This document shows, piece after piece, positions 1 through 14,811 of a stretch of 14,866 bases of DNA. The DNA lies in the IMG/VR virus record IMGVR_UViG_3300010388_000350, positions 1-14,866 of that record; one strand, given 5' to 3'. Origin of the DNA: a virus. The notes beneath the pieces are model-generated. The model did not search any database, had not been told where the DNA came from, and was given only the letters and a program-made list of their open reading frames with translations. Position numbers and translations under genes: made by a program. How positions within the stretch are numbered: the first letter of the stretch is position 1; each line of letters opens with the position of its first letter.

Positions 1-55
1 AAAAGTGGCAACGACAATCATCACGGGTCGCGATCTCACATTGACGATTGCGACC
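1..55. repeat. Terminal direct repeat, left copy (identical to 14812-14866)
   Basis: Base-by-base comparison: aaaagtggcaacgacaatcatcacgggtcgcgatctcacattgacgattgcgacc is present at both ends. Confidence 0.95.
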
Positions 56-406
56 ACAAATTATGATGCTCAGGCAACATCAGCGACCCTAAGCAACTCA
101 CCAACCATCGAGGCATATCAGACACTTGATGGCAAAGTTTTTAAGCACATCGATGACACATGGACATTTGCTGTCGAGATGCTTGCAGACTGGGGAGCTA
201 CTTCATCACTATGCGAAGCACTATGGACAGCGGCAGAATCAGCACCAAACACAGCTTTGGCTGTTTCATTGACAGCTGTTTCAGGCGCGGTTTTTGCATT
301 CAATGTTTTGCCTGAATATCCAACTGTGGGCGGTTCAGCACCTGATGCTCAGACTGTAACGCTAAACTTCACAGTGCTTGCAACACCAACTGAAACATTC
401 AGCTAA
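5..406 (+). CDS. Major tail (tube) protein, 133 aa
   Basis: GTG start at 5. The duplicated copy of this start at 14816 is preceded by AAGGAG (14803-14808, 7-nt spacer). It occupies the canonical slot between the neck genes and the chaperone/frameshift/tape-measure block. The sequence is small, Thr/Ala/Ser-rich and looks beta-type. Assignment is by synteny only. Confidence 0.6.
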   Translation: MATTIITGRDLTLTIATTNYDAQATSATLSNSPTIEAYQTLDGKVFKHIDDTWTFAVEMLADWGATSSLCEALWTAAESAPNTALAVSLTAVSGAVFAFNVLPEYPTVGGSAPDAQTVTLNFTVLATPTETFS

Positions 407-428
407 AAACTAGAGATCGGGAGAAAAA

Positions 429-704
429 ATGAAGCTACCAATCACAATCGAATACAACAATGGTGATTCAGATATTTACATCGCGCAGCCGCCTGAATGG
501 GCAAAGTGGGAAGTGAAAACTGGCAACACCATTTCACAGGCACAAGACAAGATCGGCATCAATGATCTGATGTTTTTGGCTTATCACGCCATGAAGCGTG
601 GTTCAGCTGGAAAGCCTGTGAAGCCGTATGAGGCATGGATGGAAACCATCGCTGATGTAAGAGTCGGAGATGATGACCCAAAAGCCACAAGCGCGGAAGC
701 GTAA
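429..704 (+). CDS. Tail assembly chaperone, short (G-like) product, 91 aa
   Basis: ATG 429 is preceded by GGGAGA (419-424). It lies directly after the tail tube gene and before the tape measure. It has an acidic C-terminus, and a slippery heptamer near its 3' end opens an extension in the -1 frame. Confidence 0.65.
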   Translation: MKLPITIEYNNGDSDIYIAQPPEWAKWEVKTGNTISQAQDKIGINDLMFLAYHAMKRGSAGKPVKPYEAWMETIADVRVGDDDPKATSAEA

Positions 705-817
705 GTCGCTTATTGATCGAGGTGGCAATTGCCACTGGAATTCCAATGAGTGAATGGCAAAGCGCGGAAGATATATTGACAGCTTTGGAGATATTGGAGA
801 GCAGGAATGGCAGCTGA
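429..817 (+). CDS. Tail assembly chaperone, frameshifted (G-T-like) product; join(429..683,683..817), about 129 aa
   Basis: The -1 frame after the slip reads SHKRGSVSRLLIEVAIATGIPMSEWQSAEDILTALEILESRNGS*. It fills the only otherwise non-coding ~100-nt gap (705-806) in the structural module. This matches the conserved position of the gpG/gpGT frameshift. Confidence 0.5.
677..683 (+). promoter_or_regulatory. -1 programmed ribosomal frameshift slippery heptamer C_CCA_AAA
   Basis: The zero-frame codons are GAC CCA AAA GCC. CCCAAAA fits the XXXYYYZ rule. The -1 frame is open from here to TGA 815-817, and the zero frame stops at 702-704. Confidence 0.55.
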
Positions 818-1265
818 GCAGGTCTCGTATGATAAGACCGAGCTTCGAGCTGTCATTCGTGCCTTCAAAGCAATGGATGATGAATCCGTACAAGCTGCCA
901 AAACTCAATCGGGAGCTTTAGCTACTTACCTTCAGCGCAAGATCATTGATGCAGCTGGTCAATCTTTCAATCAGGTTGCACCAATGATCGCGCAAGGTTC
1001 GCGTGTTTCAAAGTCGTCAAAGATCGGTGAGATCAGCTTTGGCTTTGCTTCTCAGCGGTTATCAGGCGGCGGCACAACTCAAATGCTTTGGGGCGGTTAT
1101 GAATTCGGCTCAAACAAATATAAGCAATTCCCAAAGTGGTCAGGTCGCGAAGGTCGCGGTTCAAAAGGTTGGTTTATTTATCCGACACTACGAGCAGAGC
1201 AGCCATATTTGATTCGTGAGTGGGAAAATGGCTTTGACAAAATTCTGAAAGAGTGGGATCGCTGA
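807..1265 (+). CDS. HK97 gp10-like neck / tail-completion protein (tentative), 152 aa
   Basis: ATG 807 is preceded by GGAGAG (796-801). The architecture resembles the HK97-gp10-like family: an N-terminal helical segment (ELRAVIRAFKAMDDESVQAAK...), a central GEISFGF, then GGYEFGS and GWFIYPTLRAEQP near the C-terminus. The position between chaperone and tape measure is atypical. Confidence 0.4.
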   Translation: MAAEQVSYDKTELRAVIRAFKAMDDESVQAAKTQSGALATYLQRKIIDAAGQSFNQVAPMIAQGSRVSKSSKIGEISFGFASQRLSGGGTTQMLWGGYEFGSNKYKQFPKWSGREGRGSKGWFIYPTLRAEQPYLIREWENGFDKILKEWDR

Positions 1266-2755
1266 TGGCACAAAGTAGAACCTTGAAGCTGGCTTTGCTG
1301 GCTGACATTGCCAATTTCAGCACCAACATGAACACGGCTGGAAAACAGTCGGACACGCTTGGCGGACAATTTGAAGCTTTCGGAAAAAAGGCAGCTTTGG
1401 CATTTGCCGCAGCTGGCGCAGCTATTGGCGCATATGCAAAGGTGGCGATTGAGAATGCAGCTGCCGATGAAAAGGCACAGCGCAATCTTGCACTCACTAT
1501 CGAAAACACTACATCAGCCACAGCTCGTCAGATCGCTGGCGTTGAGGATTACATCAGCACAACATCGCTGGCAATCGGCATCACCGATGATGAGCTTCGC
1601 CCAGCTTTTGGTCGATTGGTTCGATCCACAAAAGATGTTGAAGATGCACAAAGATTGCTCAATCTTGCACTTGATGTTTCGGCTGCCACAGGCAAGCCGC
1701 TGGAAGCTGTCGCAAATGCGCTTGGCAAGGCATATGACGGCAATCTGAATGCACTTGGTCGCTTAGGTCTAGGCATCGATGCTTCAATCCTTAAATCAAA
1801 GGATTTTGATCTCGTATTTAATACGCTGACAGATACCTTTGGCGGCTTTGCTGCAAATGAAGCTTTGAGCACTGAAGCGGCTTTTGCTCGAATCAAGATC
1901 GCTGGAGATGAAATTCAAGAGCAAATTGGTTCAGCCTTGCTGCCTGTCGTACAAGAGCTCACCACATTCATTCTCACAAATGTTGTGCCAGTGGTTCAGC
2001 AATTTGTAAATGGTCTAACTGGTCAAGGTGGATTGTCATCATCATTGACGGATTCTGAAAAGAAAGCTTTCGCATGGGGCGAAAGAGTCAAAGCTGTCAT
2101 CAAAACTGTTATCCAATTCAAGGATGAACTGATCGCGGTTGCTGGCGTGATCGCAACTGTGTTTGTGGTGTCAAAGATTTCGGCAGCTGTCACAACCACA
2201 ATTGCTTTGATCAAAACTTTAATTGCTGCATATAACGCTTTGAAAGCTTCAGCAATTGTTGCTGGCGTTGCCACAGCTTTTGCATTGAATCCATTGCTAG
2301 GTGTGGGAGCTGTGGCATTGGCAGCGGCTGTCTTGTCAGGTGCAAATGCTTTGGCTAATCGATCCAACGGAATTGACGAAGCACCATCAACAGGTGCAAT
2401 TCCATTTGCATCAGGTTTTGCAGCTCCAGCCAGCTCAGGCGGCGGCACAGGCGGCGGTGGCGGCGGTACGACCACAGGCGGTTCATTCACAGGTGCTGGC
2501 GGTGGCGTGACCACAGCTTCAAAAGCGGCGGCAGCTGCCGCTGAAACAATTATCGGATTGAACACATCATCAGCTCAGGCTTCAGGTTTATCTGATGCAG
2601 CCAATGCAGCTCGATTGGGTCAAGGCACAACAATCAATCTGACTGTGGTTGGTGCTTACGATAAAGAGGGAACAGCGAGAACAATTGTTGAGACTTTGAA
2701 CAATTCAAGCTATCGCGGCGGCGGTGGTGGAGCTGGTTCATTGGTGGCATTGTGA
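1265..2755 (+). CDS. Tape measure protein, 496 aa
   Basis: ATG 1265 overlaps the upstream stop (TGATG); in-frame ATG 1253 is an alternative start. The N-terminal half is Ala-rich and helical. There are long hydrophobic runs (LIAVAGVIATVFVV..., GVGAVALAAAVLSGANALA) and Gly tracts (GGGTGGGGGGTTTGG, RGGGGGAG). It lies directly downstream of the chaperone genes. Confidence 0.85.
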   Translation: MAQSRTLKLALLADIANFSTNMNTAGKQSDTLGGQFEAFGKKAALAFAAAGAAIGAYAKVAIENAAADEKAQRNLALTIENTTSATARQIAGVEDYISTTSLAIGITDDELRPAFGRLVRSTKDVEDAQRLLNLALDVSAATGKPLEAVANALGKAYDGNLNALGRLGLGIDASILKSKDFDLVFNTLTDTFGGFAANEALSTEAAFARIKIAGDEIQEQIGSALLPVVQELTTFILTNVVPVVQQFVNGLTGQGGLSSSLTDSEKKAFAWGERVKAVIKTVIQFKDELIAVAGVIATVFVVSKISAAVTTTIALIKTLIAAYNALKASAIVAGVATAFALNPLLGVGAVALAAAVLSGANALANRSNGIDEAPSTGAIPFASGFAAPASSGGGTGGGGGGTTTGGSFTGAGGGVTTASKAAAAAAETIIGLNTSSAQASGLSDAANAARLGQGTTINLTVVGAYDKEGTARTIVETLNNSSYRGGGGGAGSLVAL

Positions 2756-3999
2756 CCCAGTGGCAACCCATATGGCGTGTAAAGATTGATGGCACTGATT
2801 ACACATCAGCCATTCTTTCAAATCTGACAATCACAAGCGGTCGGACAAATATCTATGAACAGGCAGCCGCAGGGTATGTCAATCTTCAGCTGATCGATGT
2901 CAATCAGGTTGCAATCCCAGTGGAGATCAACAGCTCGATTTCAATCGAAATCAAAAACACATCAAACACATTTGTGCCGATTTTTGGTGGCAATGTGGTG
3001 GACATTGGGCTTGAAGTCAGAGATGTCGGATCAGTTATGTTTTCCCAGACATACAACATCATCGCTTTGGGAGCTTTGGCGCGATTGCCAAAAGCTTTGA
3101 CCAATGGTGTGCTTTCAAAATCTTTTGATGGTGATCAAATATATACAATTCTTTCAGCTGTGCTTTTTGATACATGGGCGGAAGTGCCAGCAGCTACAAC
3201 ATGGGCGACTTATGATCCAACAATTACATGGGCAAATGCAGAAAATTCAGGATTGGGAACAATCGATCGCCCCGGAAATTATGAGCTTGCAAAACGCGAT
3301 TCATCGCGAACAGATGTTTATTCACTGGTTTCAGCTTTAGCAACATCAGGTCTTGGTTATATTTACGAAGATGCACAGGGTCGGATTGGCTATGCAGACA
3401 GCACACATCGAACAAATTATCTTGGAACAAATGGATATGTTGATCTAGATGTCAATCAAGCTCGTGCCGCTGGACTTCGAATCGAAACTAGAGCTGGAGA
3501 TGTCCGAAACAATTTGACCATTCAATATGGTGAAACATCGTCAGCTGATGTCAGTGCCAGTGATGCCACATCGATTGGTTTATATGGGCAACTTTCACAA
3601 ATCATCACAACTACATTGCACAATTCAACAGATGCCACAGCACAGGCAAATTTCTATCTTTCACTCAGAGCCGATCCATATCCAATTTTCAGCTCAATCA
3701 CTTATGACTTGACCAACCCTGAGCTTGACAATTCTGATCGCGACAATCTTTTGAATGTTTTCATGGGTATGCCAATCGCGTTGAGCAATCTGCCGCTGAA
3801 CATGAATAGCGGAACATTTCAGGGCTTTGTCGAAGGCTGGACATTTCAGGCAAACTACAACCGACTCAGCATGTCGATGAATCTTTCCCCACTAGCTTTC
3901 AGCCTTCAGGCGATGCGCTGGAACGATGTACCAATCACCGAAACTTGGTCAAGCGTGTCGCCAACGCTTGACTGGCAATCTGCAACAATTGTTGCCTGA
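2752..3999 (+). CDS. Distal tail (Dit-like) / minor tail protein, 415 aa
   Basis: GTG 2752 overlaps the tape measure stop (GTGA). It is the first gene after the tape measure. The N-terminus WRVKIDGTDYTSAILSNLTITSGRTN...LQLID resembles the start of Dit-type siphovirus tail proteins. Confidence 0.55.
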   Translation: MTQWQPIWRVKIDGTDYTSAILSNLTITSGRTNIYEQAAAGYVNLQLIDVNQVAIPVEINSSISIEIKNTSNTFVPIFGGNVVDIGLEVRDVGSVMFSQTYNIIALGALARLPKALTNGVLSKSFDGDQIYTILSAVLFDTWAEVPAATTWATYDPTITWANAENSGLGTIDRPGNYELAKRDSSRTDVYSLVSALATSGLGYIYEDAQGRIGYADSTHRTNYLGTNGYVDLDVNQARAAGLRIETRAGDVRNNLTIQYGETSSADVSASDATSIGLYGQLSQIITTTLHNSTDATAQANFYLSLRADPYPIFSSITYDLTNPELDNSDRDNLLNVFMGMPIALSNLPLNMNSGTFQGFVEGWTFQANYNRLSMSMNLSPLAFSLQAMRWNDVPITETWSSVSPTLDWQSATIVA

Positions 4000-4011
4000 T
4001 AAGGAGAAAAT

Positions 4012-4536
4012 ATGAGCAATCCAACTTCCGCGTTCGGCTGGCAAATGCCCACATCGACTGATTTGGTCACAGACCTTCCAGCCGATTTTGAAGTATTTGG
4101 TCAAGCTGTCGATACATCATTGGCTGATCTAAAAGGTGGCACAACAGGTCAGGTGCTTTCAAAAGCATCAAACACAGACATGGATTTCACATGGATTGCA
4201 CAAGACGACATGTCGCTTGCAATCAATGCTCAGACAGGTAGTTCATACACAGCTGTCCTCGGCGATGGAACAAATACCCTTGTTTCGATGGACAATGCTT
4301 CATCAAATACTTTTTATATTCCAACGGATGCCAGTGTGAATTTTGATATTGGAACAGTTTTGAATATTTACATGAAAGGTGCAGGGGTCACAACTATCAC
4401 GGCAACGACCCCGGGAACAACAACTGTTGTTTCATCAGGTGCAACAATTGGCTCACCTGTTTTGGCTCGTTATAAGATTGCAAGCGCAATCAAACTTGCT
4501 GCGAATTCATGGACAGTGATCGGTGGCATTGCGTAA
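4012..4536 (+). CDS. Tail fibre / receptor-binding-type minor tail protein, 174 aa
   Basis: AAGGAG (4001-4006) lies 5 nt before ATG 4012. The N-terminal motifs FGWQMPTSTDLVTDLPADFEVFGQAVD and GGTTGQVLSKASNTDMDFTW are of the kind seen at the N-termini of many phage fibre proteins. Confidence 0.5.
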   Translation: MSNPTSAFGWQMPTSTDLVTDLPADFEVFGQAVDTSLADLKGGTTGQVLSKASNTDMDFTWIAQDDMSLAINAQTGSSYTAVLGDGTNTLVSMDNASSNTFYIPTDASVNFDIGTVLNIYMKGAGVTTITATTPGTTTVVSSGATIGSPVLARYKIASAIKLAANSWTVIGGIA

Positions 4537-5372
4537 TGCGAAATCCCATTCTTGGAATTACAGCTCAGGGAATCAAAGTTGCACCAACGGCTGTTGATTA
4601 TTTGGTTGTAGCAGGTGGAGCATCAGGCGGATTCTTTGCAGGTGGTGGCGGCGGAGCTGGCGGATTGCGTACAGCAACAAATTTTGCTGTTTCTAGCGGA
4701 TCATCAATCACAGTGACTGTTGGTGCTGGCGGTTCGCCTAGCGGTGGACAAGGCAACAATGGAAATGATTCTGTATTTTCAACCATCACATCAACTGGTG
4801 GCGGTGGTGGTTCAGGTAACGGCGGCACAGGAAACAGCGGCGGTTCAGGCGGTGGCGGTGGCGGCTTAGGAGCTGGCTCAGGCGGAGCAGGAACATCAGG
4901 TCAAGGTAATGCTGGCGGTGCAACTGTTGCAGGTTCAGGTGGCGGTGGCGGTGGCGGAGCATCAGCAACTGGATCAGCTGGAACAACACCAAGCGGCGTT
5001 GCAACTGGCGGCAATGGTGGAGATGGAACATCGAGCAGCTACTCAGGCGCATCAGTTACATATGCAGGTGGCGGTGGCGGAGCTGCACAAGATCCCCCAG
5101 CACCATCAGGCACAGGTGGAGCAGGTGGCGGTGGCACAGGTGGACAAGGAAACAACATTGTTGCACCAACAGCTGGCACAGCTAACACTGGCGGTGGCGG
5201 TGGCGGTTCATGGTTCGGTGTGAACGCAGGTGCTGGCGGTTCAGGTGTCGTGATCATTCGTTATCCTGACAGCTATGCATTGGCTACATCGACAACAGGA
5301 TCACCAACAGTGACAACCACAGGCGGATACAATATTTACAAATTCACAGGAAGTGGATCGGTGACTTTCTAA
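4536..5372 (+). CDS. Glycine-rich minor tail / fibre protein, 278 aa
   Basis: ATG 4536 overlaps the upstream stop (TAATG); the track start 4509 is less likely. DYLVVAGGASGG...GGGGGAGG, repeated G-rich blocks and the C-terminal GAGGSGVVIIRYP are typical of the phage glycine-rich fibre domain. Confidence 0.65.
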   Translation: MRNPILGITAQGIKVAPTAVDYLVVAGGASGGFFAGGGGGAGGLRTATNFAVSSGSSITVTVGAGGSPSGGQGNNGNDSVFSTITSTGGGGGSGNGGTGNSGGSGGGGGGLGAGSGGAGTSGQGNAGGATVAGSGGGGGGGASATGSAGTTPSGVATGGNGGDGTSSSYSGASVTYAGGGGGAAQDPPAPSGTGGAGGGGTGGQGNNIVAPTAGTANTGGGGGGSWFGVNAGAGGSGVVIIRYPDSYALATSTTGSPTVTTTGGYNIYKFTGSGSVTF

Positions 5373-5659
5373 TGGCACATGCAGCTGAATTAAATGAGAA
5401 TAACGAAGTCATTCGCGTTGTTGTAATTTCTAACGATTGCGAGCCAAATGTTGAAGAATTTGCTACTGAACTATTTGGTGGCACATGGAAGCAGACTTCA
5501 TATAATTCAACAATTCGCAAAAACTTTGCTGGGATTGGTTTCACATATGATCAAGCAATTGATGCATTCATCCCGCCAAAATGCCATGATGAAGCAATTT
5601 TGAATCAAACAACAGCGCAATGGGATTGCGAGAATGAGGCACACAATGTCATTTCCTAA
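5372..5659 (+). CDS. Small hypothetical protein downstream of the fibre genes, 95 aa
   Basis: ATG 5372 overlaps the upstream stop (TAATG). Motifs ELNENNEVIRVVVISND and AGIGFTYDQAIDAFIPP resemble, from memory, small proteins often found next to fibre genes. Function is unknown. Confidence 0.55.
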   Translation: MAHAAELNENNEVIRVVVISNDCEPNVEEFATELFGGTWKQTSYNSTIRKNFAGIGFTYDQAIDAFIPPKCHDEAILNQTTAQWDCENEAHNVIS

Positions 5660-6218
5660 AGGTACAGCTGCACATTTCATCGATGTTGCTTTGGCTGAAG
5701 TGGGAACTGTTGAAGAAGGCGACAACCTGACCAAATACGGCAAATTCACAAAAGCTGATGGATTGCCGTGGTGTGGATCATTTGTCAATTGGTGTGCAAA
5801 TGAGGCTGGGGTCAAGCTGCATTCAGTAGTTTCAACAGCTTTGGGAGCTCATAAATTCAAAGAGGTTTCACGCTGGCATGAGACACCACAGCTCGGCGAT
5901 TGCGCTTTCATGGATTTTCCACATGACGGCATTGACAAAATTTCTCACATTGGAATTGTTGTGGGGATCAAAGCAAAGTCAGTGATCACCATCGAAGGAA
6001 ATACAAGCGGCACAGGCGATCAACGCAATGGCGGCATGGTCATGATCAAGGAAAGAGAATTCGGTGCTGGAAAGCCTGTTGTGGGCTTTGGGCGACCAAA
6101 ATTCGTGCCTTACAAGGGCGAATATCCTGTCATCGAAGTCAAAGAATCAGCACCAAAACCTTCAAAGGAGAAGAAAAATGGAAAGCTTAAAACCATTGCT
6201 GGCAAGCTGGGGTCGTAG
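5646..6218 (+). CDS. CHAP-domain endolysin (peptidoglycan amidase/endopeptidase), 190 aa
   Basis: GAGG (5636-5639) lies 6 nt before ATG 5646; ATG 5634 is an alternative start. CHAP signatures are present: GDNLTKYG, catalytic Cys context LPWCGSFVNWC, His context ISHIGIVV, then TIEGNTS. The C-terminal tail is Lys-rich. No separate wall-binding domain is evident. Confidence 0.8.
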   Translation: MSFPKGTAAHFIDVALAEVGTVEEGDNLTKYGKFTKADGLPWCGSFVNWCANEAGVKLHSVVSTALGAHKFKEVSRWHETPQLGDCAFMDFPHDGIDKISHIGIVVGIKAKSVITIEGNTSGTGDQRNGGMVMIKEREFGAGKPVVGFGRPKFVPYKGEYPVIEVKESAPKPSKEKKNGKLKTIAGKLGS

Positions 6219-6366
6219 TTTTATGGCAGCTTCACTTGCGCTTTACATGGCAGGGGAAACTGATCCAAAGACTTTATTGATGGCAGGTGGAGCAGCTGTT
6301 GCTCCAGTCATTTTGCGTTGGTTAAATCCAAAAGACACAGCTTTCGGGGTCACACGGGGAAGATGA
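6178..6366 (+). CDS. Holin-like protein with two hydrophobic segments, 62 aa
   Basis: AAGGAG (6165-6170) lies 7 nt before ATG 6178, inside the end of the endolysin gene. The hydrophobic segments are SFMAASLALYMAG and LLMAGGAAVAPVILRWL, followed by a charged C-terminus. The longer track version (6064) lacks an RBS and lies wholly inside the endolysin gene. Confidence 0.55.
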   Translation: MESLKPLLASWGRSFMAASLALYMAGETDPKTLLMAGGAAVAPVILRWLNPKDTAFGVTRGR

Positions 6367-6578
6367 TCTCGAAATGGTTACGGCTGGCAGCGTTGATTGT
6401 GGGGTCACTTTCAATGCTGTCAGCTTGTACCTATCAAGGCTGGACAAGATATGAATGTCAAGAATACGAAAACTGGAAAAAGCCTGAGTGTAATCCGCCG
6501 CAATGTAAGGCTCAGGGAATCTGCACTGAGGACATATACGGAAGCGATCCAAATGAAGAAGCCATCGTCACGCCATAG
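6363..6578 (+). CDS. Small Cys-rich lipoprotein, 71 aa
   Basis: ATG 6363 overlaps the holin stop (ATGA). The signal peptide MISKWLRLAALIVGSLSMLSAC ends in the lipobox L-S-A-C. The mature ~49 aa carry four more Cys (C-x10-C-x4-C-x5-C). Confidence 0.5.
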   Translation: MISKWLRLAALIVGSLSMLSACTYQGWTRYECQEYENWKKPECNPPQCKAQGICTEDIYGSDPNEEAIVTP

Positions 6579-6858
6579 ATACACAAATGAACAGCTCAAA
6601 GCTCGCCTGATTGTTTTCATCGGTGTGGCATTGAGCTTCACTTTTGTGTTTTCTGTCGGTGGGATGCTGTATGCGTTGATCTTTGTCACTCAGCCGCTAG
6701 GCAATCAAGCTCCCAATGACAGGGCTTTCATCGAGCTTCTTTCAACACTGACAATCTTTCTCACTGGAGCTTTGGGCAGCGTACTGGCTTCCAATGGCTT
6801 AAAGGACAAACCCAAATCTGTGGATGACACGCCGAAGCAAGATTTGCCTGAATCCTGA
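6553..6858 (+). CDS. Two-TM membrane protein, 101 aa
   Basis: ATG 6553 gives a basic N-terminus (MKKPSSRHRYTNEQLKAR). Two hydrophobic helices follow (LIVFIGVALSFTFVFSVGGMLYALIFV; FIELLSTLTIFLTGALGSVLA), then a charged tail. The upstream part of the track ORF (from 6397) fully overlaps the lipoprotein ORF and was not used. Confidence 0.5.
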   Translation: MKKPSSRHRYTNEQLKARLIVFIGVALSFTFVFSVGGMLYALIFVTQPLGNQAPNDRAFIELLSTLTIFLTGALGSVLASNGLKDKPKSVDDTPKQDLPES

Positions 6859-6916
6859 TTTTGCTTCACCCTGATGCTAGTGGGTCACACTGACTCACGG
6901 AATCGGGAGAAATGAA

Positions 6917-7075
6917 ATGATGCTTGACTTGTTAGACCCAGCCACATTGGGTCGATTGATTGGCGTGATCAGCTTGATGATCATGGGAACAGCTATCGGA
7001 TACGCAAAAGGCTTCAAAGAAGGTCGCCGTGAAGGCATTGCACTTTCGAAGGCAATCCGAAAGGCGGCAAAGTAA
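6917..7075 (+). CDS. Single-TM small protein, 52 aa (below the ORF-track cutoff)
   Basis: GGGAGA (6904-6909) lies 7 nt before ATG 6917. The sequence is MMLDLLDPATLGRLIGVISLMIMGTAIGYAKGFKEGRREGIALSKAIRKAAK: an acidic N-terminus, one TM segment and a strongly basic C-terminus. Its TAA (7073-7075) abuts the next ATG (7076). It is co-directional with every other gene. Confidence 0.45.
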   Translation: MMLDLLDPATLGRLIGVISLMIMGTAIGYAKGFKEGRREGIALSKAIRKAAK

Positions 7076-7744
7076 ATGGGATTTCTAGACAATTACGAAG
7101 GCAACAAAGAGCGAACAGATCGATGGATCGCGACTTACCCTGAAGGCAGACTTGAAGCTCACATCGTTGAATTCAGTGCTGAAAAGGGCTATGTGCTTGT
7201 ACAAGCTAAAGCTTGGCGCAATCAGACTGAAACAGAGCCAGCTGGCATAGATTATGCATACGGCTATCTAGCTGCCTACAACGCGAACATGAAACGCTGG
7301 ATGATCGAGGACACTACGACTTCAGCTTTGATGCGTGTCATGGCACTTGTCATGGGCGGCACTGAAAAGGCTACAAAAGAGACCATGCAACAGGTCGAGA
7401 CGATGAGCACAAAGGTTGCAACAGCTGATGTGAAAAAGGAATATGACTATTGGACAACCAAATTTGGTGATGTGCCATCATGGGATTCACAAGAAGCTGC
7501 ACAGGAAGCTGGTCTGCCTACATTGGGAACAGCTGTCAATGAAATCGCTTCACAGCTAGGCGGTGAGCTAGTCAAAGAAGCTCCACAGTGCCAGCATGGG
7601 CATATGGTGTGGCGCGAAGGCACAAGCCAAAAGACAGGCAAAGCTTGGGCAAATTACAGCTGCACAGAGAAAAACAAAGCAACGCAATGTCAGCCAAATT
7701 GGTATGTGCTGACGAGCGATGGCACATGGAAGCCACAGGTGTGA
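7076..7744 (+). CDS. Early protein of unknown function with a C-terminal Cys/His zinc-ribbon-like module, 222 aa
   Basis: It is a long clean ORF. The N-terminal ~95 aa (ERTDRWIATYPEGRLEAHIVEF...WMIEDTTTSALMRVMALVMGG) resemble, from memory, a recurrent uncharacterised phage early-gene domain. The C-terminus CQHGHMVWREGTSQKTGKAWANYSCTEKNKATQC has metal-ligand spacing. Confidence 0.6.
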   Translation: MGFLDNYEGNKERTDRWIATYPEGRLEAHIVEFSAEKGYVLVQAKAWRNQTETEPAGIDYAYGYLAAYNANMKRWMIEDTTTSALMRVMALVMGGTEKATKETMQQVETMSTKVATADVKKEYDYWTTKFGDVPSWDSQEAAQEAGLPTLGTAVNEIASQLGGELVKEAPQCQHGHMVWREGTSQKTGKAWANYSCTEKNKATQCQPNWYVLTSDGTWKPQV

Positions 7745-7938
7745 TGATGGCTGACTATGTTGAGCTCATAAACCCACAGACCATGACTTGCAAGCTGTTG
7801 TGCAATGGTGAAGTGGTTGAAGAATATGTCGTTGATCGTTGTGACAAGTGCGAAATGATCAAGCGCAAAGATGCTTTTGGCTGGCAAAAAGGCACAGGCG
7901 GCGAAAAGCTCATGTGGTTTTGTGGGTCATGCCGATGA
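7744..7938 (+). CDS. Cys-rich zinc-finger mini-protein, 64 aa
   Basis: ATG 7744 overlaps the upstream stop (TGATG). Six Cys are arranged CxxxC...CxxC...CxxC (TCKLLC, RCDKC, FCGSC). Confidence 0.5.
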   Translation: MMADYVELINPQTMTCKLLCNGEVVEEYVVDRCDKCEMIKRKDAFGWQKGTGGEKLMWFCGSCR

Positions 7939-8423
7939 TCAAGATCAATCTGACACGAGATGATGAGCTTGAATGTGCATCGGTTGCATTTAGGCGAACA
8001 TTTGAAACACCTGAAAAGGTTGATCAGAGCTTTGAAAAGCTCAACACCTTCGATGACATAGCTAGAAACTCTGAAGCCATTGGTGCTGAGATGGCAGCTG
8101 CAAAGCTGTTCGGTTTCAAGGATTGGTCGCCATCAGTGAACACTTTCAAGCGAGAAGCTGATATTGGTTCGAAAATCGAAATCAAGCACACCAAATGGGA
8201 ATCAGGTCATTTGATTATCAAGCCATCAGATCGAGATGAAGATATTGCTGTGTTGGTTACAGGCAAATCACCAACATTCTTTGTCGTTGGATGGATTCCA
8301 GTGGTGATGGCTAAAAAGCCACGATACAAGCATGACAAATCCGAATCATGGTGGGTCTCTCAGCTCAATCTTCAACCCATCGAAAACCTAGCGAGGAGCA
8401 TTTATGGAAACGCTAAACTTTGA
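7935..8423 (+). CDS. PD-(D/E)XK nuclease-fold protein (possible resolvase/endonuclease), 162 aa
   Basis: ATG 7935 overlaps the upstream stop (ATGA); ATG 7929 is an alternative start. There is a helix with Glu (IGAEMAAAKLFGF), then ADIGSKIEIKHTK, which gives a D...E-x-K arrangement. A hydrophobic strand follows (IAVLVTG...FFVVGWI). Confidence 0.45.
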   Translation: MIKINLTRDDELECASVAFRRTFETPEKVDQSFEKLNTFDDIARNSEAIGAEMAAAKLFGFKDWSPSVNTFKREADIGSKIEIKHTKWESGHLIIKPSDRDEDIAVLVTGKSPTFFVVGWIPVVMAKKPRYKHDKSESWWVSQLNLQPIENLARSIYGNAKL

Positions 8424-8565: not shown

Positions 8566-8728
8566 ATTCAAATGTGGTGTGTGTGGCAACACTGACACAG
8601 TGACAAGATCGATCGATGCTGATGGTGAAATCCCAGCACCACAGTGCCGTGGCTGCACAATCCCGATGGAGCGAATATGGTCATTGGGTGGGATCAGCTT
8701 CAAAGGCACTGGATGGGGTCATCAATGA
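8552..8728 (+). CDS. FmdB-type (CxxC_CxxC_SSSS-like) zinc-ribbon protein, 58 aa
   Basis: The N-terminus MPTYEFKCGVCG, the second pair CRGC 20 residues later and the C-terminal FKGTGW match the hallmark layout of FmdB-family zinc ribbons. The start was chosen at ATG 8552 to give the family-typical MPTYE; ATG 8549 and the track start 8528 are alternatives. Confidence 0.65.
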   Translation: MPTYEFKCGVCGNTDTVTRSIDADGEIPAPQCRGCTIPMERIWSLGGISFKGTGWGHQ

Positions 8729-8729
8729 G

Positions 8730-8738
8730 TTATCCACA
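8730..8738 (+). promoter_or_regulatory. Perfect DnaA-box 9-mer TTATCCACA (copy 1, inside the 13-nt repeat AGTTATCCACAGG 8728-8740)
   Basis: Exact match to the high-affinity DnaA box consensus, read directly from the sequence. Confidence 0.5.
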
Positions 8739-8749
8739 GGGAGAGAAAG

Positions 8750-8758
8750 TTATCCACA
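8750..8758 (+). promoter_or_regulatory. Perfect DnaA-box 9-mer TTATCCACA (copy 2, inside the 13-nt repeat AGTTATCCACAGG 8748-8760)
   Basis: Exact consensus match, in the same orientation as copy 1 and 20 bp downstream of it. Confidence 0.5.
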
Positions 8759-8761
8759 GGC

Positions 8762-8770
8762 TGTGGAAAC
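8762..8770 (-). promoter_or_regulatory. Imperfect inverted DnaA-box-like 9-mer GTTTCCACA (7/9)
   Basis: The top strand reads TGTGGAAAC. It forms the 13-nt palindrome CCACAGGCTGTGG (8754-8766) with copy 2. Confidence 0.35.
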
Positions 8771-8823
8771 ACGCCGAAAACAGGCGCAATTCAATGAAAT
8801 GCAGAGGTGGCTCGGTACGATTC

Positions 8824-9213
8824 ATGCTCGTGAGGCGAGCCGCTGATGCGGATAGCTCGCGATCGAGGCTGAATCTATTGCCATACTTGTGCCTTATAGC
8901 GGCATTGACTTCACAAACGATGCAACCAACACAAGCTGCATCATATTCAATAGATCATTTGAAGCTTTATGCACATTCAAGATTGTTGGACTATAAAGAA
9001 TTCCAGTGTTTCAATCGCATCATCACAAAGGAATCTCGTTGGTCATACACAGCTCGCAATGGGTCACATCATGGGTTGGGTCAGATGAGATCAGAGCACT
9101 ATCGAGACCTCGATCCATATCGTCAAATAGATGCGACCATTCGCTATATAACAAAGCGTTATCAAACACCATGCAAGGCATGGGCATTCCATCAGCTAAG
9201 GAATTACTACTGA
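8824..9213 (+). CDS. Secreted or membrane-anchored lytic-transglycosylase-like (lysozyme-like) protein, 129 aa from ATG 8824
   Basis: The C-terminal domain FNRIITKESRWSYTARNGSHHGLGQM...QIDATIRYITKRYQTPCKAWAFHQLRNYY resembles small SLT/lysozyme-like proteins (catalytic E in ES-x-W, GLGQ, C-terminal AW...Y). It is preceded by a basic n-region and the hydrophobic LNLLPYLCLIAALTS...TQAAS (signal peptide or anchor). The start is uncertain: ATG 8725 (ATGA overlap with the upstream stop) would add 33 basic residues and place the DnaA boxes in coding sequence. Confidence 0.5.
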   Translation: MLVRRAADADSSRSRLNLLPYLCLIAALTSQTMQPTQAASYSIDHLKLYAHSRLLDYKEFQCFNRIITKESRWSYTARNGSHHGLGQMRSEHYRDLDPYRQIDATIRYITKRYQTPCKAWAFHQLRNYY

Positions 9214-9542
9214 TGAGCAATGGTTGGAAGAATGGAAGCACAAGCCGCTGGCGTAAGCTGAGAGCAGCTGTGATCCTGAGAGATGGTGGATGCTGTCAAT
9301 ACTGTGGCTCACAAGAAAACCTTCATGTGGATCACATCATCCCAAAGCGATTGGTTGGAGAAAACGGAGACACGATGGAGAATTTGATCACGGCTTGCAG
9401 ACAGTGCAATTTGAGCAAAGGCGGCAAATTAGCCGAATTAGGCGAAAATCAATCAAAAGGCGGTTTTTTTGGTAAGCACAGGACACCCCCGACTCTCCAT
9501 GTTGGATATATACCCCAAAATGGCAGCGTAAGTCATGACTAA
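9213..9542 (+). CDS. HNH endonuclease (packaging-associated position), 109 aa
   Basis: ATG 9213 overlaps the upstream stop (TGATG). The HNH signature is present: CCQYCGS...LHVDHIIPK...NLITACRQCNLSKG. It lies immediately upstream of, and overlaps, the large terminase gene. Confidence 0.85.
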   Translation: MSNGWKNGSTSRWRKLRAAVILRDGGCCQYCGSQENLHVDHIIPKRLVGENGDTMENLITACRQCNLSKGGKLAELGENQSKGGFFGKHRTPPTLHVGYIPQNGSVSHD

Positions 9543-11037: not shown

Positions 11038-11044
11038 GTGTAAC

Positions 11045-11062
11045 GCCTGAGAAAATTCAGGC
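11045..11062 (+). other. Perfect 6-bp stem / 6-nt loop hairpin (GCCTGA gaaaat TCAGGC) abutting the portal start codon
   Basis: The inverted repeat was read directly. It lies in the 25-nt TerL-portal gap, and no Shine-Dalgarno is visible for the portal ATG at 11063. Confidence 0.3.
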
Positions 11063-12199: not shown

Positions 12200-13767
12200 A
12201 GGTAACAACACCATTCAAGGTCAGTGCAGCCGATACAAATTCGCGAACCATTTCAGGTCGCATTCTTGAATTTGGCGTCGCTGCAAATGCATCAACAGGC
12301 AAAGTGATGTTCGAAAAAGGATCAGTCGAACCACAGCTCGTGAAGCTTAATTTGGAGCACCAATCAGATCGCCCGATCGGTCGCGCAATCGATATTTCAC
12401 TTTCAGATGATCAATCAACGATGGATGGAATTTTTAAGATTGCCAACACCACAGCTGGTTCAGATAGCTTGGTCGAGGCACAAGATGGGCTTCGCGATGG
12501 CTTCTCGATCGAAGTTGAAGCCGAAGAATATACATGGGCTGAAGATGGAACACTTGTGATTTCAAAAGGTACTTTGACAGGCGTTGCATTGACACACAAT
12601 CCAGCTTTCAAGAATGCTCGTGTCGAAGAAGTCGCAGCAACAGAAGGCGAAGAAGAAACACCTGAAGTTTCTGAATCCGATGTGGATGCAGAAAACCAAC
12701 CAACAACAGAAGGAGACGAAGTGGAAAACACCGTCAATGACGCTTCAGCCGTAGAGACGGTAGAAGCTACTCAGTCAATCAAGGCAGCTGCACCAATCGT
12801 GGGTGGATCATTCACAAAGCCACGCCTTGAATTCACAGCTGCAAAGTATGTGGAAAACACAATCCGCGCTGCAATGGGCGATGAAGATGCTCGTCAGTAT
12901 GTTCGCGCAGCTGACAACACAACCGACAATGCTGGTCTTGTACCAACACGCCAGCTTTCAGAGGTTGTCAATGGACTTTCAACAATGATCCGTCCATCAA
13001 TCGATGCAATTTCTCGTGGTGCATTGCCTGATGCTGGAATGACTTTTGAAATTCCAAAGATCACAGTTGCACCAACAGTTGCTGTGACAGCTGAAGATGG
13101 CACACCATCAGAGACAGATCAAAATTCTGCCTTCATTTCTGTGGATGTTAAGACCTTCTCAGGTCAGCAAACATTTAGCACACAAATTCTCGACCGCAGC
13201 TCACCTGCATTCTTTGAGGAGCTTGTACGAAATATGGCGGCAGCTAAGGCAAAGGCAGAGAATGCTTATGTTTCAGCAGCACTTGTTTCAGCAGCAACAG
13301 CTGACGGCACAACCACAACAACATACCCAACAGCCGCAGAGCTTCTTGGTGTTGTTGCTCGTGGTGCTGCATCAGTTTATGGCGCGACAGCTGGTCTCCC
13401 AAATGGTTTCGCAAAGAACATCATCATGGGTACAGGACAGTGGTCAAATGTAATGACACTGAATGATTCAGGTCGTCCAATTTACACAGCACAGCAACCA
13501 ATGAACGCTGGCGGCGTAGCTCGTCCAGATTCATTGCGTGGCAATGTTGCAGGTCTTGATCTATATGTTGATCCATCACTTGCAGCAACAGATGCTGACG
13601 GCACAATCTTGATCGTCAATCCAGATGCATACACATGGTATGAGGGAAACACATATCGCCTTCGCGCTGATGTTGTAGCTTCAGGTCAGATCACTATCGG
13701 ATATTACGGTTACGGAGCTTTGGCAACAAAGATCGCAGCTGGCGCATTCAAGAATAACAAGGCTTAA
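12196..13767 (+). CDS. Fusion of an HK97-type (S78) prohead protease domain and an HK97-fold major capsid protein, 523 aa
   Basis: GTG 12196 overlaps the portal stop (GTGA), and AGAGGAG (12181-12187) lies upstream. Residues 1-~145 carry LNLEHQSDRPIGRA (His55), RDGFSIEVE (Ser104) and LTGVALTHNPAFKNARV. Residues ~150-205 form an acidic linker. Residues ~205-523 look like an HK97-type capsid protein (AGLVPTRQLSEVV..., FEIPKITVAP..., GLDLYVDPSL..., ILIVNPDAYTWYE). Confidence 0.8.
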   Translation: MKVTTPFKVSAADTNSRTISGRILEFGVAANASTGKVMFEKGSVEPQLVKLNLEHQSDRPIGRAIDISLSDDQSTMDGIFKIANTTAGSDSLVEAQDGLRDGFSIEVEAEEYTWAEDGTLVISKGTLTGVALTHNPAFKNARVEEVAATEGEEETPEVSESDVDAENQPTTEGDEVENTVNDASAVETVEATQSIKAAAPIVGGSFTKPRLEFTAAKYVENTIRAAMGDEDARQYVRAADNTTDNAGLVPTRQLSEVVNGLSTMIRPSIDAISRGALPDAGMTFEIPKITVAPTVAVTAEDGTPSETDQNSAFISVDVKTFSGQQTFSTQILDRSSPAFFEELVRNMAAAKAKAENAYVSAALVSAATADGTTTTTYPTAAELLGVVARGAASVYGATAGLPNGFAKNIIMGTGQWSNVMTLNDSGRPIYTAQQPMNAGGVARPDSLRGNVAGLDLYVDPSLAATDADGTILIVNPDAYTWYEGNTYRLRADVVASGQITIGYYGYGALATKIAAGAFKNNKA

Positions 13768-13785
13768 TCAGCCACCAATCAATCA

Positions 13786-13813
13786 TCGGCTGGGTTCTCC
13801 CGATCTCAGCCGA
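13786..13813 (+). other. Stem-loop (TCGGCTG ... CAGCCGA, 7-bp stem, 14-nt loop) in the capsid-adaptor intergenic gap
   Basis: The inverted repeat was read directly. An alternative 5-bp pairing is ATCGG/CCGAT. No U-tract follows. Confidence 0.25.
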
Positions 13814-13836
13814 GCAGAATCAAAGGAGAAGTGCTC

Positions 13837-14418
13837 ATGCCAGCAATCGTCACAGCTGCACAGTTGCGAACAGTGCTCGGTGTGAGCACTTCCCTTTATT
13901 CAGATGCGTATCTTGATGAAATTATCAACACAGCTGAAAGCGTGATCTTGCCATTGCTGATCGCAAATCAGGTTGCTGTTGTGGATTACAAACTTGAATC
14001 AAATGTCGCTTACTATTACACACAGCGACCACATCATTTTGTTGCAGGTCAGTCTGTTGTTGTAGCTGGTCTCCCAGCTCCATTTTCTGCCACTGTAACT
14101 GTTGCGGACGACAAGCTCACCCCATATTCATTCACAGCTGCCATCACAAATGCTGATGTCACATTGCGAACATCAATCCCAGCTGGCACAGCTACGCTTT
14201 CAGGTTACTCAGCTGCAACACTTTATGCAGACAACGATGCAATCGAATCAGCTGTGTTGGTGGTAAGCGTTGAAGTATTTCAATCTCGCATTGCAGCTGG
14301 CGGACAAATCGAAGGTGTCGATTTTGCTTCAACACCCTACCGCATGGGCAAAAATCTCGCGGCTCGTGTCAGCTCATTGCTTTCAGCTTATCTTGACATC
14401 GAAAGCGTATGTCAATGA
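13837..14418 (+). CDS. Head-tail adaptor (gp6-like connector) with an internal insertion, 193 aa
   Basis: AAGGAG (13823-13828) lies 8 nt before ATG 13837; the track GTG 13831 is too close to the RBS. The N-terminal TAAQLRTVLGVSTSLYSDAYLDEIINTAESVILPLL and the C-terminal IESAVLVVSVEVFQSRIAAGG...RVSSLLSAYL fit gp6-like adaptors. It is the first gene after the capsid gene. Confidence 0.55.
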   Translation: MPAIVTAAQLRTVLGVSTSLYSDAYLDEIINTAESVILPLLIANQVAVVDYKLESNVAYYYTQRPHHFVAGQSVVVAGLPAPFSATVTVADDKLTPYSFTAAITNADVTLRTSIPAGTATLSGYSAATLYADNDAIESAVLVVSVEVFQSRIAAGGQIEGVDFASTPYRMGKNLAARVSSLLSAYLDIESVCQ

Positions 14419-14804
14419 CAGCCAGCACAATCGGATCAGCTGTCCGAACACCATTGGCGAATGCATTTTCTGCATTGGCGGCTTCGATCTATAGCTCAGT
14501 ACCTGAGACAGTAATCAGCCCAGCAATTGTGCTCATTCCTGATTCTCCATATCTCGAACCAAATTTGATCAACCAATCAACCACAAAGCTTCAGGTCAAT
14601 CTTGTCGTGACAGCTATTGTGAATTACAACAGCAACGCTGGCTCATTGGATAACTTGGAGCAGCTTGTTGTGAGCATTCTCGGTGCAATGCCATCGGGGT
14701 ACATTGTGGGAGCTGTCGAGCGACCAACAGTGGTTCAAATCGGTGCAGGATCATTTCTTGCTGCCGATATTTCAGTATCAACCCAATACACACAGACAAA
14801 CTAA
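14415..14804 (+). CDS. Tail terminator / tail completion protein (SPP1 gp17 / DUF3168-like, tentative), 129 aa
   Basis: ATG 14415 overlaps the upstream stop (ATGA); ATG 14409 is an alternative start. It lies immediately upstream of the tail tube gene. The pattern SAVRTPLANAFSALAASIYSSVPETVISPAIVLIPDSP is of the kind seen in DUF3168 proteins. Confidence 0.45.
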   Translation: MTASTIGSAVRTPLANAFSALAASIYSSVPETVISPAIVLIPDSPYLEPNLINQSTTKLQVNLVVTAIVNYNSNAGSLDNLEQLVVSILGAMPSGYIVGAVERPTVVQIGAGSFLAADISVSTQYTQTN

Positions 14805-14811
14805 GGAGCAC

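Follow-up and report, generated by a model that had tools for sequence, protein, structure and literature searches.

How does a tailed phage propagate if its genome holds less than 15 kb and no recognisable gene for its own replication? This question is raised by the IMG/VR virus record IMGVR_UViG_3300010388_000350, whose whole stretch of 14,866 nt was analysed here (the window). A preliminary description had read it as a near-minimal tailed phage with a full virion, lysis and packaging set, devoid of replication, lysogeny and transcription genes. Our Pfam and PHROG scans of every ORF likewise found none of the latter three classes, and neither a polymerase, helicase, primase, initiator, integrase or repressor nor a small terminase was detected by Pfam, PHROG, PDB-profile or AlphaFold/Foldseek searches. 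The reading we prefer, and to which we give roughly even chances, is that of a complete lytic-type cos siphovirus whose host-driven replication would start at a pair of DnaA boxes.

Genome unit and phage family

Bases 1-55 of the window (unstranded) are identical to bases 14812-14866, so that it consists of a genome unit of 14,811 bp plus a 55-nt assembly overlap. An independent contig closes likewise: the 14,938-nt contig of ENA ERZ926485 equals 14,811 nt plus an overlap of 127 nt, with no mismatch to the window unit. At least 596 IMG/VR contigs are related to the window, with unit lengths of 13.7-14.8 kb. Dozens of independent linear contigs of 14.0-14.8 kb span the genome from one cos end to the other, longer family contigs are concatemer assemblies of more than unit length with periods of 13.7-14.6 kb, and host DNA flanking the phage was found in none of about 160 family loci. 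Because of the closure in two assemblies and the relatives of the same size with the same cos ends, the window is one complete 14,811-bp phage genome, and the objection raised in the preliminary description, that it might be a subfragment of a larger genome, fails. Nor is this phage an oddity, as it belongs to an uncultured family of great abundance. A megablast search of the whole genome against 50,697 phage records gave no match, and a literature search of incomplete coverage found no description of the family.

Alternatively, the contig could be non-autonomous: a piece of some larger genome, a satellite or an element akin to gene transfer agents, with its replication genes located elsewhere. 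Its size indeed resembles that of GTA clusters, and replication genes are absent from it; on the other hand, circular closure with two different overlap lengths, the linear contigs running from cos end to cos end, the concatemer periods, the loci free of flanking host DNA and the full head, tail, packaging and lysis set in the contig all argue against this view. As far as sequence data allow, it appears to be refuted already, and we consider it highly improbable.

Virion, packaging and lysis genes

The earlier estimate of about 25 genes on one strand was borne out: after refinement of the starts, 98.0% of the unit is taken up by 25 genes. The + strand carries every long ORF, ten ORFs on the - strand (89-180 aa) had no Pfam match, and neither tRNA genes nor Rfam families were found in the window. 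All ten start/stop overlaps reported before are present, as TGATG, GTGA, TAATG or ATGA junctions, and the proposed division of the genome matches ours, with about 11.3 kb for virion and packaging, 1.2 kb for lysis and 2.35 kb for other genes. A sigma-70 promoter scan gave 13 promoter-like sites, fewer than the 18.7 in shuffles and none of them informatively placed; terminator-like sites (17 versus 13.1 in shuffles) were near expectation. The cos site, frameshift, DnaA boxes and hairpin treated below had been overlooked in the preliminary description.

The virion, lysis and packaging set is confirmed by Pfam or PHROG matches for HNH, TerL, portal, S78 protease-capsid, tail proteins and CHAP; Gly_rich_2, a transglycosylase-like protein and Zn_ribbon_8 were recovered in the same way. 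All genes described in the following are on the + strand. The unit begins with a major tail protein of 133 aa (5..406; phrog_4574, E 2e-5), followed by the tail assembly chaperone (429..817). The short form of the latter covers 429-704, whereas the long form arises through a -1 frameshift at C CCA AAA (677-683) and stops at 815-817, its extension explaining the largest apparent gap (705-806). The heptamer and a -1-frame extension of 45-47 aa are kept in all nine of nine relatives. Next comes a conserved tail-module protein of 152 aa (807..1265; 58-78% identity in relatives), for which no Pfam or PHROG match was found. Position, size and Gly-rich and hydrophobic segments suggest that the adjacent gene (1265..2755), of no significant family match, encodes the tape measure protein (496 aa). 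The three tail-tip/fibre genes (2752..5372; phrog_8780, phrog_2295; Pfam Gly_rich_2 7e-23) comprise a tail-tip/fibre gene of 415 aa (2752-3999), a minor tail gene of 174 aa (4012-4536) and a glycine-rich tail-tip/fibre gene (4536-5372). A 95-aa protein (5372..5659; phrog_7759) leads over to the lysis cassette (5646..6858), whose four genes encode a CHAP endolysin (5646-6218; Pfam CHAP 4.5e-9; phrog_9589 endolysin), a holin-like protein of 62 aa (6178-6366), a Cys-rich lipoprotein (6363-6578) and a 2-TM protein (6553-6858). In addition to a phrog_25359 match in this cassette, a lipobox and TM segments can be recognised in the sequence itself.

Between the HNH and large-terminase genes we found the cos element ACACCCCCGACTCTCC (9483..9498, unstranded), which equals that of the window in 25 of 26 spanning contigs. 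Of 91 TerL-matching contigs, 34 start at the equivalent of position 9499, with TerL as the gene next to the left end, and at least nine linear contigs end in '...ACAC'. The cohesive end is predicted to be CCCCGACTCTCC (9487-9498, 12 nt), and its overhang to be of 3' polarity. The ORF of the HNH endonuclease (9213..9542; Pfam HNH 1.8e-13) crosses the cos site with its tail, and its stop overlaps the start of TerL (9535-11037; phrog_9, 1e-54). No ORF matched a TerS family. The head genes are the portal (11063-12199; Pfam/PHROG), a prohead protease-capsid fusion of 523 aa (12196-13767; phrog_2263 over the full length, 4e-66), with Peptidase_S78 at residues 8-149 and Phage_capsid at residues 273-490, and two head-tail joining genes (13837-14418 and 14409-14804), assigned by position and phrog_22278. 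The cos element and the gene order can serve as markers when metagenomes are searched for complete genomes of the family.

In our reading, the coding space is taken up by virion, lysis and HNH-assisted cos packaging functions, with a 2.3-kb right arm for small DNA-binding and nuclease-like proteins. After injection, the 12-nt cohesive ends would anneal and the resulting circle would be transcribed by the host polymerase; only then would the HNH ORF be complete and contiguous with the TerL gene coupled to it.

Right-arm genes, DnaA boxes and hairpin

In the preliminary description, the region 6917-9213 held only small membrane, zinc-ribbon, nuclease-like and transglycosylase-like proteins. The region is not functionally empty, as it includes, besides a PD-(D/E)XK-like protein and FmdB-like zinc ribbons, a member of the L5/D29 gp49 family, whose place in large actinophages is the module for replication and nucleotide metabolism. 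This gp49-family protein of 222 aa (7076..7744; Pfam PF25690), preceded by a single-TM protein of 52 aa conserved across the family (6917..7075), scored 34.7 bits against PF25690 (cutoff 27), with only the C-terminal 40 model residues, i.e. the zinc-ribbon part, being aligned; 43 of 58 diverse relatives match the same model. With 2,521 homologs and 52-65% identity across the family, its gene is the most conserved non-structural one. An AF2 model of low confidence (pLDDT 62) suggests an N-terminal alpha-beta-beta-beta-alpha domain, and the C-terminus carries a Cys/His zinc ribbon that is weakly GRF-like, with weak NEIL3 and ZCCHC4 matches. Sequence-profile searches found no PDB match, nor did Foldseek return anything significant from PDB for the model, the best matches being dsRBD-like domains and the GRF-finger protein ZCCHC4. 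The beta-beta-beta-alpha topology together with a 'TSAIGRAL' helix prompted a comparison with Rad52/SSAP proteins. This identity was rejected as unsupported, since hhalign against a Sak/Rad52 alignment (100+ sequences; PF04098-type) gave a probability of 2.2% (E 0.021); a local hhalign comparison with human RAD52 gave P 0.17.

Further downstream, a CxxC...CxxC zinc-ribbon protein of 64 aa (7744..7938) is conserved in all relatives and followed by a PD-(D/E)XK-like nuclease candidate of 162 aa (7935..8423). In the latter, E52, K72 and E82 are invariant, D76 and K84 are kept in at least 90% of the sequences, and the AF2 model (pLDDT 87.7) has a helix-helix-strand layout. The best Foldseek matches of this model in PDB, HincII and PvuII, were not significant; its BFVD relatives are mostly unnamed, two being named 'restriction endonuclease'. 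Two more small proteins, a zinc-ribbon protein of 53 aa (8404-8565) and an FmdB-like Zn_ribbon_8 protein of 58 aa (8552-8728; 31.8 bits, under the cutoff of 34.4), complete this stretch. Profile searches of the small ORFs, with AlphaFold and Foldseek applied to the two largest, revealed no replication protein, in line with the earlier view. The same region of nine diverged complete relatives adds only a methyltransferase-like or P-loop kinase-like gene (motifs only), and inspection of their ORFs disclosed no replication genes.

We assume that the zinc-ribbon protein of the gp49 family and the PD-(D/E)XK-like candidate are probably accessory DNA-handling factors. This raises the question if the 222-aa protein, by itself or together with the latter, might instead be the phage's own replication or recombination factor, either as an unrecognised origin-binding initiator or as a strand-annealing protein driving recombination-dependent replication, in which case the DnaA boxes would be incidental or regulatory. 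Such a role would be in keeping with its conservation and number of homologs, and with the location of gp49 homologs in 52-kb actinophages, between ThyX/MazG and ribonucleotide reductase and near DNA polymerase I. The modelled fold with its zinc ribbon may weakly resemble ssDNA-binding GRF fingers, and the nuclease-like gene two genes downstream could be seen as an analogue of exonuclease/annealase pairs. The Rad52/Sak comparison, the lack of a PDB sequence match or significant Foldseek match, the low model confidence and the absence of iterons in or near the 222-aa gene argue against it, and we rate this explanation as rather doubtful.

The preferred reading, initiation at DnaA boxes, draws on the two perfect boxes of the window, which are arranged in tandem (TTATCCACA; 8730-8738 and 8750-8758, + strand). 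Boxes with at most one mismatch number 13, compared to 3.0 +/- 2.0 in shuffles, none of 200 shuffles attaining that number. In family loci, 76 perfect + strand boxes were counted in 1.38 Mb versus about 5 expected, and 47 of 49 loci have at least two boxes at the homologous place, versus about 1% of background windows. The sites number two to five and sit within an ORF that is open in all relatives, among which the box pair is read in all three frames. Judged from these loci, the cluster is conserved at the DNA level. Tandem boxes of this 13-nt spacing are common in actinobacterial chromosomes within box clusters. As a marker of oriC they were discarded: an Arthrobacter pair lies between rhomboid and sortase/GATase genes, away from dnaA-dnaN, and for this reason no oriC claim is made here. 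A clear AT-rich unwinding element adjoining the boxes is missing from the window; the closest patch rich in AT (8940-9002) ranks only 6th or 7th in AT content within the genome. No DnaA-trio array was seen by eye, and 6800-9560 contains no convincing iterons besides the DnaA boxes.

At a distance of 76 nt downstream of the boxes, the window contains a GC-rich two-tier hairpin, GCGAGC-CGC-TGAT-GCG-GATA-GCTCGC (8835..8860, unstranded). In relatives, it is 97.4% paired and compensatory changes affect seven of the nine pairs (matched by 0 of 500 shuffles); every change is a double Watson-Crick replacement, with no G-T (G-U type) pair in 387 cells. The hairpin is translated in two frames among relatives, and one clade has an A-rich tract in its place, about 100 nt downstream of the boxes. 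The DnaA-box pair and the covarying hairpin are new DNA-level elements. The gene at this site encodes a transglycosylase-like secreted or membrane protein (8725..9213; phrog_12661, 6e-12; actinophage matches), with a possible internal start (TTG 8878) followed by a signal peptide.

The boxes could also serve a purpose other than initiation, be it as a datA-type DnaA sink perturbing host initiation or in DnaA-regulated transcription into the late genes (transglycosylase, HNH, TerL), the hairpin then controlling, as an RNA element, the translation from the internal transglycosylase start. The boxes lie at the 5' end of the gene block leading into HNH and TerL, and the hairpin is located 3-8 nt ahead of an RBS-like GAGG/AAGGG and, in relatives too, an in-frame ATG, GTG or TTG, then a signal peptide. 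DnaA boxes without an assigned role are also reported for other phages, for example in the T5 injection-stop region (bioRxiv 10.1101/866236). However, the lack of G-U type pairs would be atypical of an RNA helix, no promoter-like site was detected nearby, and the A-rich tract replacing the hairpin in one clade fits unwinding better than translation control. Taken together, we think a non-origin function unlikely.

In the preferred scheme, the host replisome would carry out all replication, starting at the host-type tandem pair (8730-8758) and aided by the DNA hairpin; DnaA binding and origin function at this site are predictions. A more far-reaching version, put forward here with much reserve as a tentative possibility, is that the family lacks any replication gene or initiator and replicates as an oriC mimic via host DnaA bound to the tandem boxes inside a coding region, with the hairpin as unwinding or priming signal and the host replisome doing the rest. 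If true, this would define minimal cis and trans requirements for tailed-phage replication. In any case, the conserved boxes and hairpin provide a concrete candidate cis-element for host-dependent replication. We found no comparable element described for cultured small actinophages, and RRH1 and Quaker, when checked, have no such box pair.

Host and relation to known systems

TerL, the protease-capsid fusion, the gp49-like protein, CHAP and the transglycosylase matched almost exclusively actinophages. Based on the agreement of these five independent proteins, the host is most likely a low-GC actinobacterium. The only MAG match in a single-protein scan, a 3.6-kb contig binned as Pseudomonadales, is probably a mis-bin, and no CRISPR or prophage link to a host was found. 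A GenBank name suggests a putative freshwater source. The family is very abundant in metagenomes and therefore probably of ecological importance for the actinobacteria that it would infect.

Clustered consensus DnaA boxes in head-to-tail tandem are shared with bacterial oriC and with plasmid or P1-type origins. Plasmid and P1 origins additionally require an element-encoded Rep protein, whereas the window has no recognisable Rep and only two to five boxes, within an ORF. The gp49 family accompanies RNR, ThyX and Pol I in large phages, but stands alone in the window. As in HK97-type cos packaging, HNH is directly upstream of the terminase with a fixed-end cos in between, and in HK97-like phages HNH proteins of this sort assist terminase cleavage. 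Unlike there, the window has no recognisable small terminase, and its HNH frame crosses cos and is translationally coupled to TerL.

Among the closest known systems are the phages of Microbacterium cluster EE (Orlajensenviridae; about 17.4 kb), grouped with the small-genome clusters AN, AX, FE, CW and DM. Cluster EE resembles the window in the HNH gene at the right end, the frameshifted tail chaperone and the lack of non-structural genes. Over 96% of its length, the capsid fusion of the window aligns at 25% identity with EE genes named 'major capsid and protease fusion'. In contrast, EE phages carry leftward HTH and Lsr2 regulator genes as well as two genes before TerL, all of which the window lacks; they infect high-GC soil actinobacteria, and the window is 2.6 kb smaller and shows no DNA similarity to them. 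With no megablast match and only three related proteins at 25-27% identity, it lacks the shared gene content and sequence similarity expected of a member of the Orlajensenviridae.

Known small actinophages span 14.27-19.7 kb (bioRxiv 10.1101/2022.02.05.479200). A protease-(scaffold)-capsid fusion is a common feature of small siphoviruses, and an architecture of the window type has been described before (PMC7302621). The window shares the traits of small actinophages, i.e. less than 20 kb, a protease-capsid fusion, HNH as last gene, TerL near the left end and cohesive ends, with protein identities to them of at most about 33%. Rhodococcus phage RRH1 (NC_016651) is similar in its one-strand siphovirus order, which runs from TerL (left end) to HNH (last gene), its long fused capsid gene and the absence of an annotated polymerase, helicase, primase or integrase. 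However, similarity is detectable for TerL, portal and capsid only (27-33% identity), and RRH1 differs by an annotated small terminase, 68% GC, no shared right-arm gene and no DnaA-box pair. Its 14,270 bp, next to the 14,811 bp of the window, support the earlier placement at the lower size limit of siphoviruses. Small-genome siphoviruses show how little a tailed phage can make do with, and the family described here, whose units measure 13.7-14.8 kb, lies at or below the cultured record holder RRH1.

Closed genome unit and gene layout

The first 55 bases of the window recur exactly at its end (14812-14866), so that it represents a circularly closed assembly with a unit of 14,811 bp. This unit is found again, with 0 mismatches and a 127-nt overlap, in a public contig of independent origin (ENA ERZ926485, 14,938 nt). 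All long ORFs are located on the + strand. The ten - strand ORFs (89-180 aa) had no match in Pfam, and neither tRNAs nor Rfam families were found in the window. With gene starts refined via RBS and overlap logic, 25 genes cover 98.0% of the unit. The ten start/stop overlaps listed in a preliminary description of this DNA are all present as TGATG, GTGA, TAATG or ATGA junctions. Its central observation, a near-minimal tailed phage, is confirmed, and the interpretation given there is supported.

Virion, packaging and lysis genes, all on the + strand, were called by Pfam and PHROG. They comprise an HNH endonuclease (9213-9542), the large terminase TerL (9535-11037; phrog_9, 1e-54), the portal (11063-12199), an S78 prohead protease and HK97-type capsid domain within one 523-aa ORF (12196-13767; phrog_2263, 4e-66), the major tail protein (5-406), minor tail proteins with a glycine-rich fibre-like protein (4012-5372) and a CHAP endolysin (5646-6218). 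An apparent 102-nt non-coding gap (705-806) is explained by a programmed -1 frameshift: from a C CCA AAA heptamer (677-683) within the 91-aa gene 429-704, the -1 frame stays open until a stop at 815-817, and this extension occupies the gap. Both the heptamer and a -1-frame extension of 45-47 aa are kept in nine of nine relatives, and 429-817 reads as a classical frameshifted tail assembly chaperone.

Genes for a small holin-like protein, a Cys-rich lipoprotein (lipobox LSAC) and a 2-TM protein follow 3' of the endolysin. The latter two overlap out of frame (6363-6858) and are largely nested in relatives such as the one represented by contig L111. This layout recalls overlapping spanin genes, although the presumed host is of Gram-positive type. 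Directly 3' of the capsid gene stop (13768-13836), we observed a hairpin with a 9-bp stem (CGGCTGGG...CTCAGCCG) and a modest folding z-score of -1.5, possibly an attenuator or a structure at the end of an mRNA.

Relatives, cohesive ends and completeness

A TerL scan of IMG/VR revealed at least 596 relatives, and a scan with the minor tail protein 277. Their contigs cluster at 14.0-15.1 kb and show complete synteny, though the proteins are just 40-80% identical. Contigs of 16-17.8 kb are assemblies longer than one unit, which overlap themselves at periods of 13.7-14.6 kb. In four such IMG/VR contigs (L020, L021, L031 and L037; 16.1-17.8 kb) the ends overlap at 89-94% identity, which marks them as chimeric concatemers assembled from co-occurring strains, longer than the actual genome. 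Within the right arm of nine complete relatives, variation is limited to small insertions: two relatives have an NPPY methyltransferase-like gene and two a P-loop kinase-like gene (assigned by sequence motifs only), and no replication or integration genes were found there. Accessory insertions between the zinc-ribbon genes and the DnaA boxes (see below) were seen in L020 (7624-8082), L021 (6320-6829) and two further contigs of relatives, L095 (13418-13861) and L155 (13059-13622); by motif, they are DNA methyltransferase-like (NPPY) or P-loop kinase-like (GAPGAGKS).

Of 91 contigs with a TerL match, 34 begin at one homologous base, 36 nt 5' of the TerL ATG (window 9499). The 16 nt just upstream equal the window sequence ACACCCCCGACTCTCC (9483-9498) in 25 of 26 spanning contigs, which include one duplicate assembly of the window itself; the flanks vary freely. 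At least nine independent linear contigs end in '...ACAC'. According to these shared start and end positions, the 12 nt CCCCGACTCTCC are absent between the right and left ends of linear assemblies, as would be expected if a single-stranded cohesive end was removed during library end-repair. This end would probably be a 3' overhang, as in most actinophages. The HNH ORF reads across the cos element (9483-9498), with an overlap (ATGACTAA) between its stop and the start of TerL. Since the HNH frame crosses cos, linear unit-length DNA can give neither the full HNH ORF nor a coupled HNH-TerL transcript; both need joined cohesive ends, in circles or concatemers.

The window is not a subfragment of a larger genome, an outcome which would have overturned the initial proposal: the unit closes, and the relatives share its size and ends. 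Readings as a fragment, a satellite or a GTA are excluded as far as sequence data allow. There is good support for reading the window as the complete genome of a near-minimal cos siphovirus whose uncultured family is abundant.

Candidate replication elements

For the remaining 2.3 kb, the preliminary description had listed only small membrane, zinc-ribbon, nuclease-like and transglycosylase-like proteins. This account is accurate: the region (6859-9212, + strand) has genes for a membrane protein of 52 aa, a zinc-ribbon protein of 64 aa, two more zinc ribbons (one FmdB-like, under the Pfam cutoff), proteins of 222 aa (7076-7744) and 162 aa (7935-8423) and a transglycosylase-like protein with a hydrophobic leader (8725-9213). 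Searches of the window yielded no polymerase, helicase, primase, SSB, known initiator, integrase, repressor or small terminase. The absence of replication, lysogeny and transcription genes is well supported, and without replication and transcription genes the phage must use host polymerases.

It could be argued that the 222-aa protein is an unrecognised phage initiator or recombinase. The protein scores over the curated cutoff of Pfam Phage_gp49 (mycobacteriophage L5/D29 gp49) via its C-terminal Cys/His ribbon, as do 43 of 58 diverse relatives, and has 2,521 homologs in a set of 5.8 billion proteins (306 representative clusters). In 52-kb Gordonia phages, the gene for a family member is flanked by those for ThyX/MazG and ribonucleotide reductase, with DNA polymerase I nearby; this is a neighbourhood of replication and nucleotide metabolism, which assigns no function. 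Neither PDB profile searches with the protein nor Foldseek with its mediocre AlphaFold model (pLDDT 62; an alpha-beta-beta-beta-alpha N-domain plus zinc ribbon) gave a significant match, the sole hints being GRF-type zinc fingers (NEIL3, ZCCHC4) and dsRBD-like folds. A Rad52-like annealing protein was also considered and dropped (2.2% probability in profile-profile comparison with a Sak/Rad52 alignment).

The 162-aa protein is modelled confidently (pLDDT 87.7). Three residues (E52, K72, E82) never vary and two more (D76, K84) are kept in at least 90% of sequences, a pattern that appears PD-(D/E)XK-like and points to a putative nuclease. Its matches to solved structures (HincII, PvuII) were not significant; the same fold is seen in numerous proteins of uncultured phages, and two of these proteins are named 'restriction endonuclease'.

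A search for iterons uncovered AGTTATCCACAGG twice within 8728-8760, as identical copies 20 nt apart; both include the DnaA-box consensus TTATCCACA (predicted boxes 8730-8758). With up to one mismatch, the window has 13 boxes compared to 3.0 +/- 2.0 in shuffles, and none of 200 shuffles reached 13; DnaA-box-like 9-mers thereby reach overall about four times the number expected from shuffles. Eleven of them, each with one mismatch, are scattered over both strands at 5772-13988. In 1.38 Mb of family loci, 76 perfect boxes were counted on the + strand against an expectation of about 5. They lie at a single site: the first codons of the transglycosylase-like ORF, irrespective of the upstream gene. 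The region is present in 49 loci; 45 of these carry one or more perfect boxes, and 47 carry two or more boxes when one mismatch is allowed, mostly paired head to tail at 13-nt spacing (39 cases). A comparable score is reached by about 1% of background windows. Relatives translate the box as SYPQ, LSTG or (F/V)IHR, i.e. in all three frames, which shows that selection acts on the DNA.

Actinobacterial chromosomes, including those of 70% GC, often carry the same tandem pair within clusters of up to ten boxes, and in the one example examined, an Arthrobacter MAG, it is not at dnaA-dnaN. There, a non-coding stretch between a rhomboid gene and sortase/GATase genes (locus L168, 3218-3750) carries ten DnaA-box-like 9-mers and looks like a chromosomal DnaA-box cluster.

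A two-tier hairpin, GCGAGC-CGC-TGAT-GCG-GATA-GCTCGC, is located at 8835-8860, 76 nt 3' of the second box. Over 43 distinct sequences, 97.4% of cells are paired, seven of nine pairs show compensatory double changes and at least six stem variants occur; none of 500 shuffles equals this covariation, and slid controls pair at just 20-47%. The hairpin is read in two different frames among relatives, and in one clade an A-rich tract takes its place. Like the box pair, it lies within the 5' portion of the transglycosylase-like ORF and is kept at the DNA level family-wide. Directly 3' (8864-8940) follow an RBS-like GAGG, an in-frame TTG (8878; ATG or GTG in relatives) and a canonical signal peptide. 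Translation of the secreted transglycosylase may begin at the internal start 8878, with the upstream 51 codons as a possible leader. This arrangement keeps alive the explanation that the hairpin is an RNA element acting in translation. However, not a single G-T/G-U pair occurs in the 43 sequences, for which reason we lean towards a DNA-level structure.

In our proposal, replication would be nucleated by host DnaA at the conserved boxes, the hairpin or A-rich tract would provide an unwinding or priming site, and the gp49-family and PD-(D/E)XK-like proteins might assist. Alternatively, the boxes could serve DnaA titration or transcriptional control. Boxes and hairpin make the replication of minimal tailed phages directly testable.

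Relation to known phages

The genome had no nucleotide match among 50,697 phage records. Protein matches in cultured phages are almost exclusively to actinophages, also for the CHAP, transglycosylase and gp49-like proteins; TerL matched 1,416 records. The GC content of 47% suggests a low-GC actinobacterium as host. GenBank already holds relatives named 'uncultured Caudovirales phage UFOVP...', presumably from freshwater metagenomes.

The best match of the protease-capsid fusion is the 'major capsid and protease fusion protein' of Microbacterium cluster EE phages (17.4 kb), with an identity of 25% across 96% of the fusion's length. Rhodococcus phage RRH1 (14,270 bp) and the EE phage Quaker have the same architecture as the window phage, but share with it just TerL, portal and capsid (25-33% identity) and do not contain the box pair. 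The class of small-genome actinophages has already been described, with 109 known members of 14.27-19.7 kb (bioRxiv 10.1101/2022.02.05.479200); the window phage is a new, deeply diverged uncultured member.
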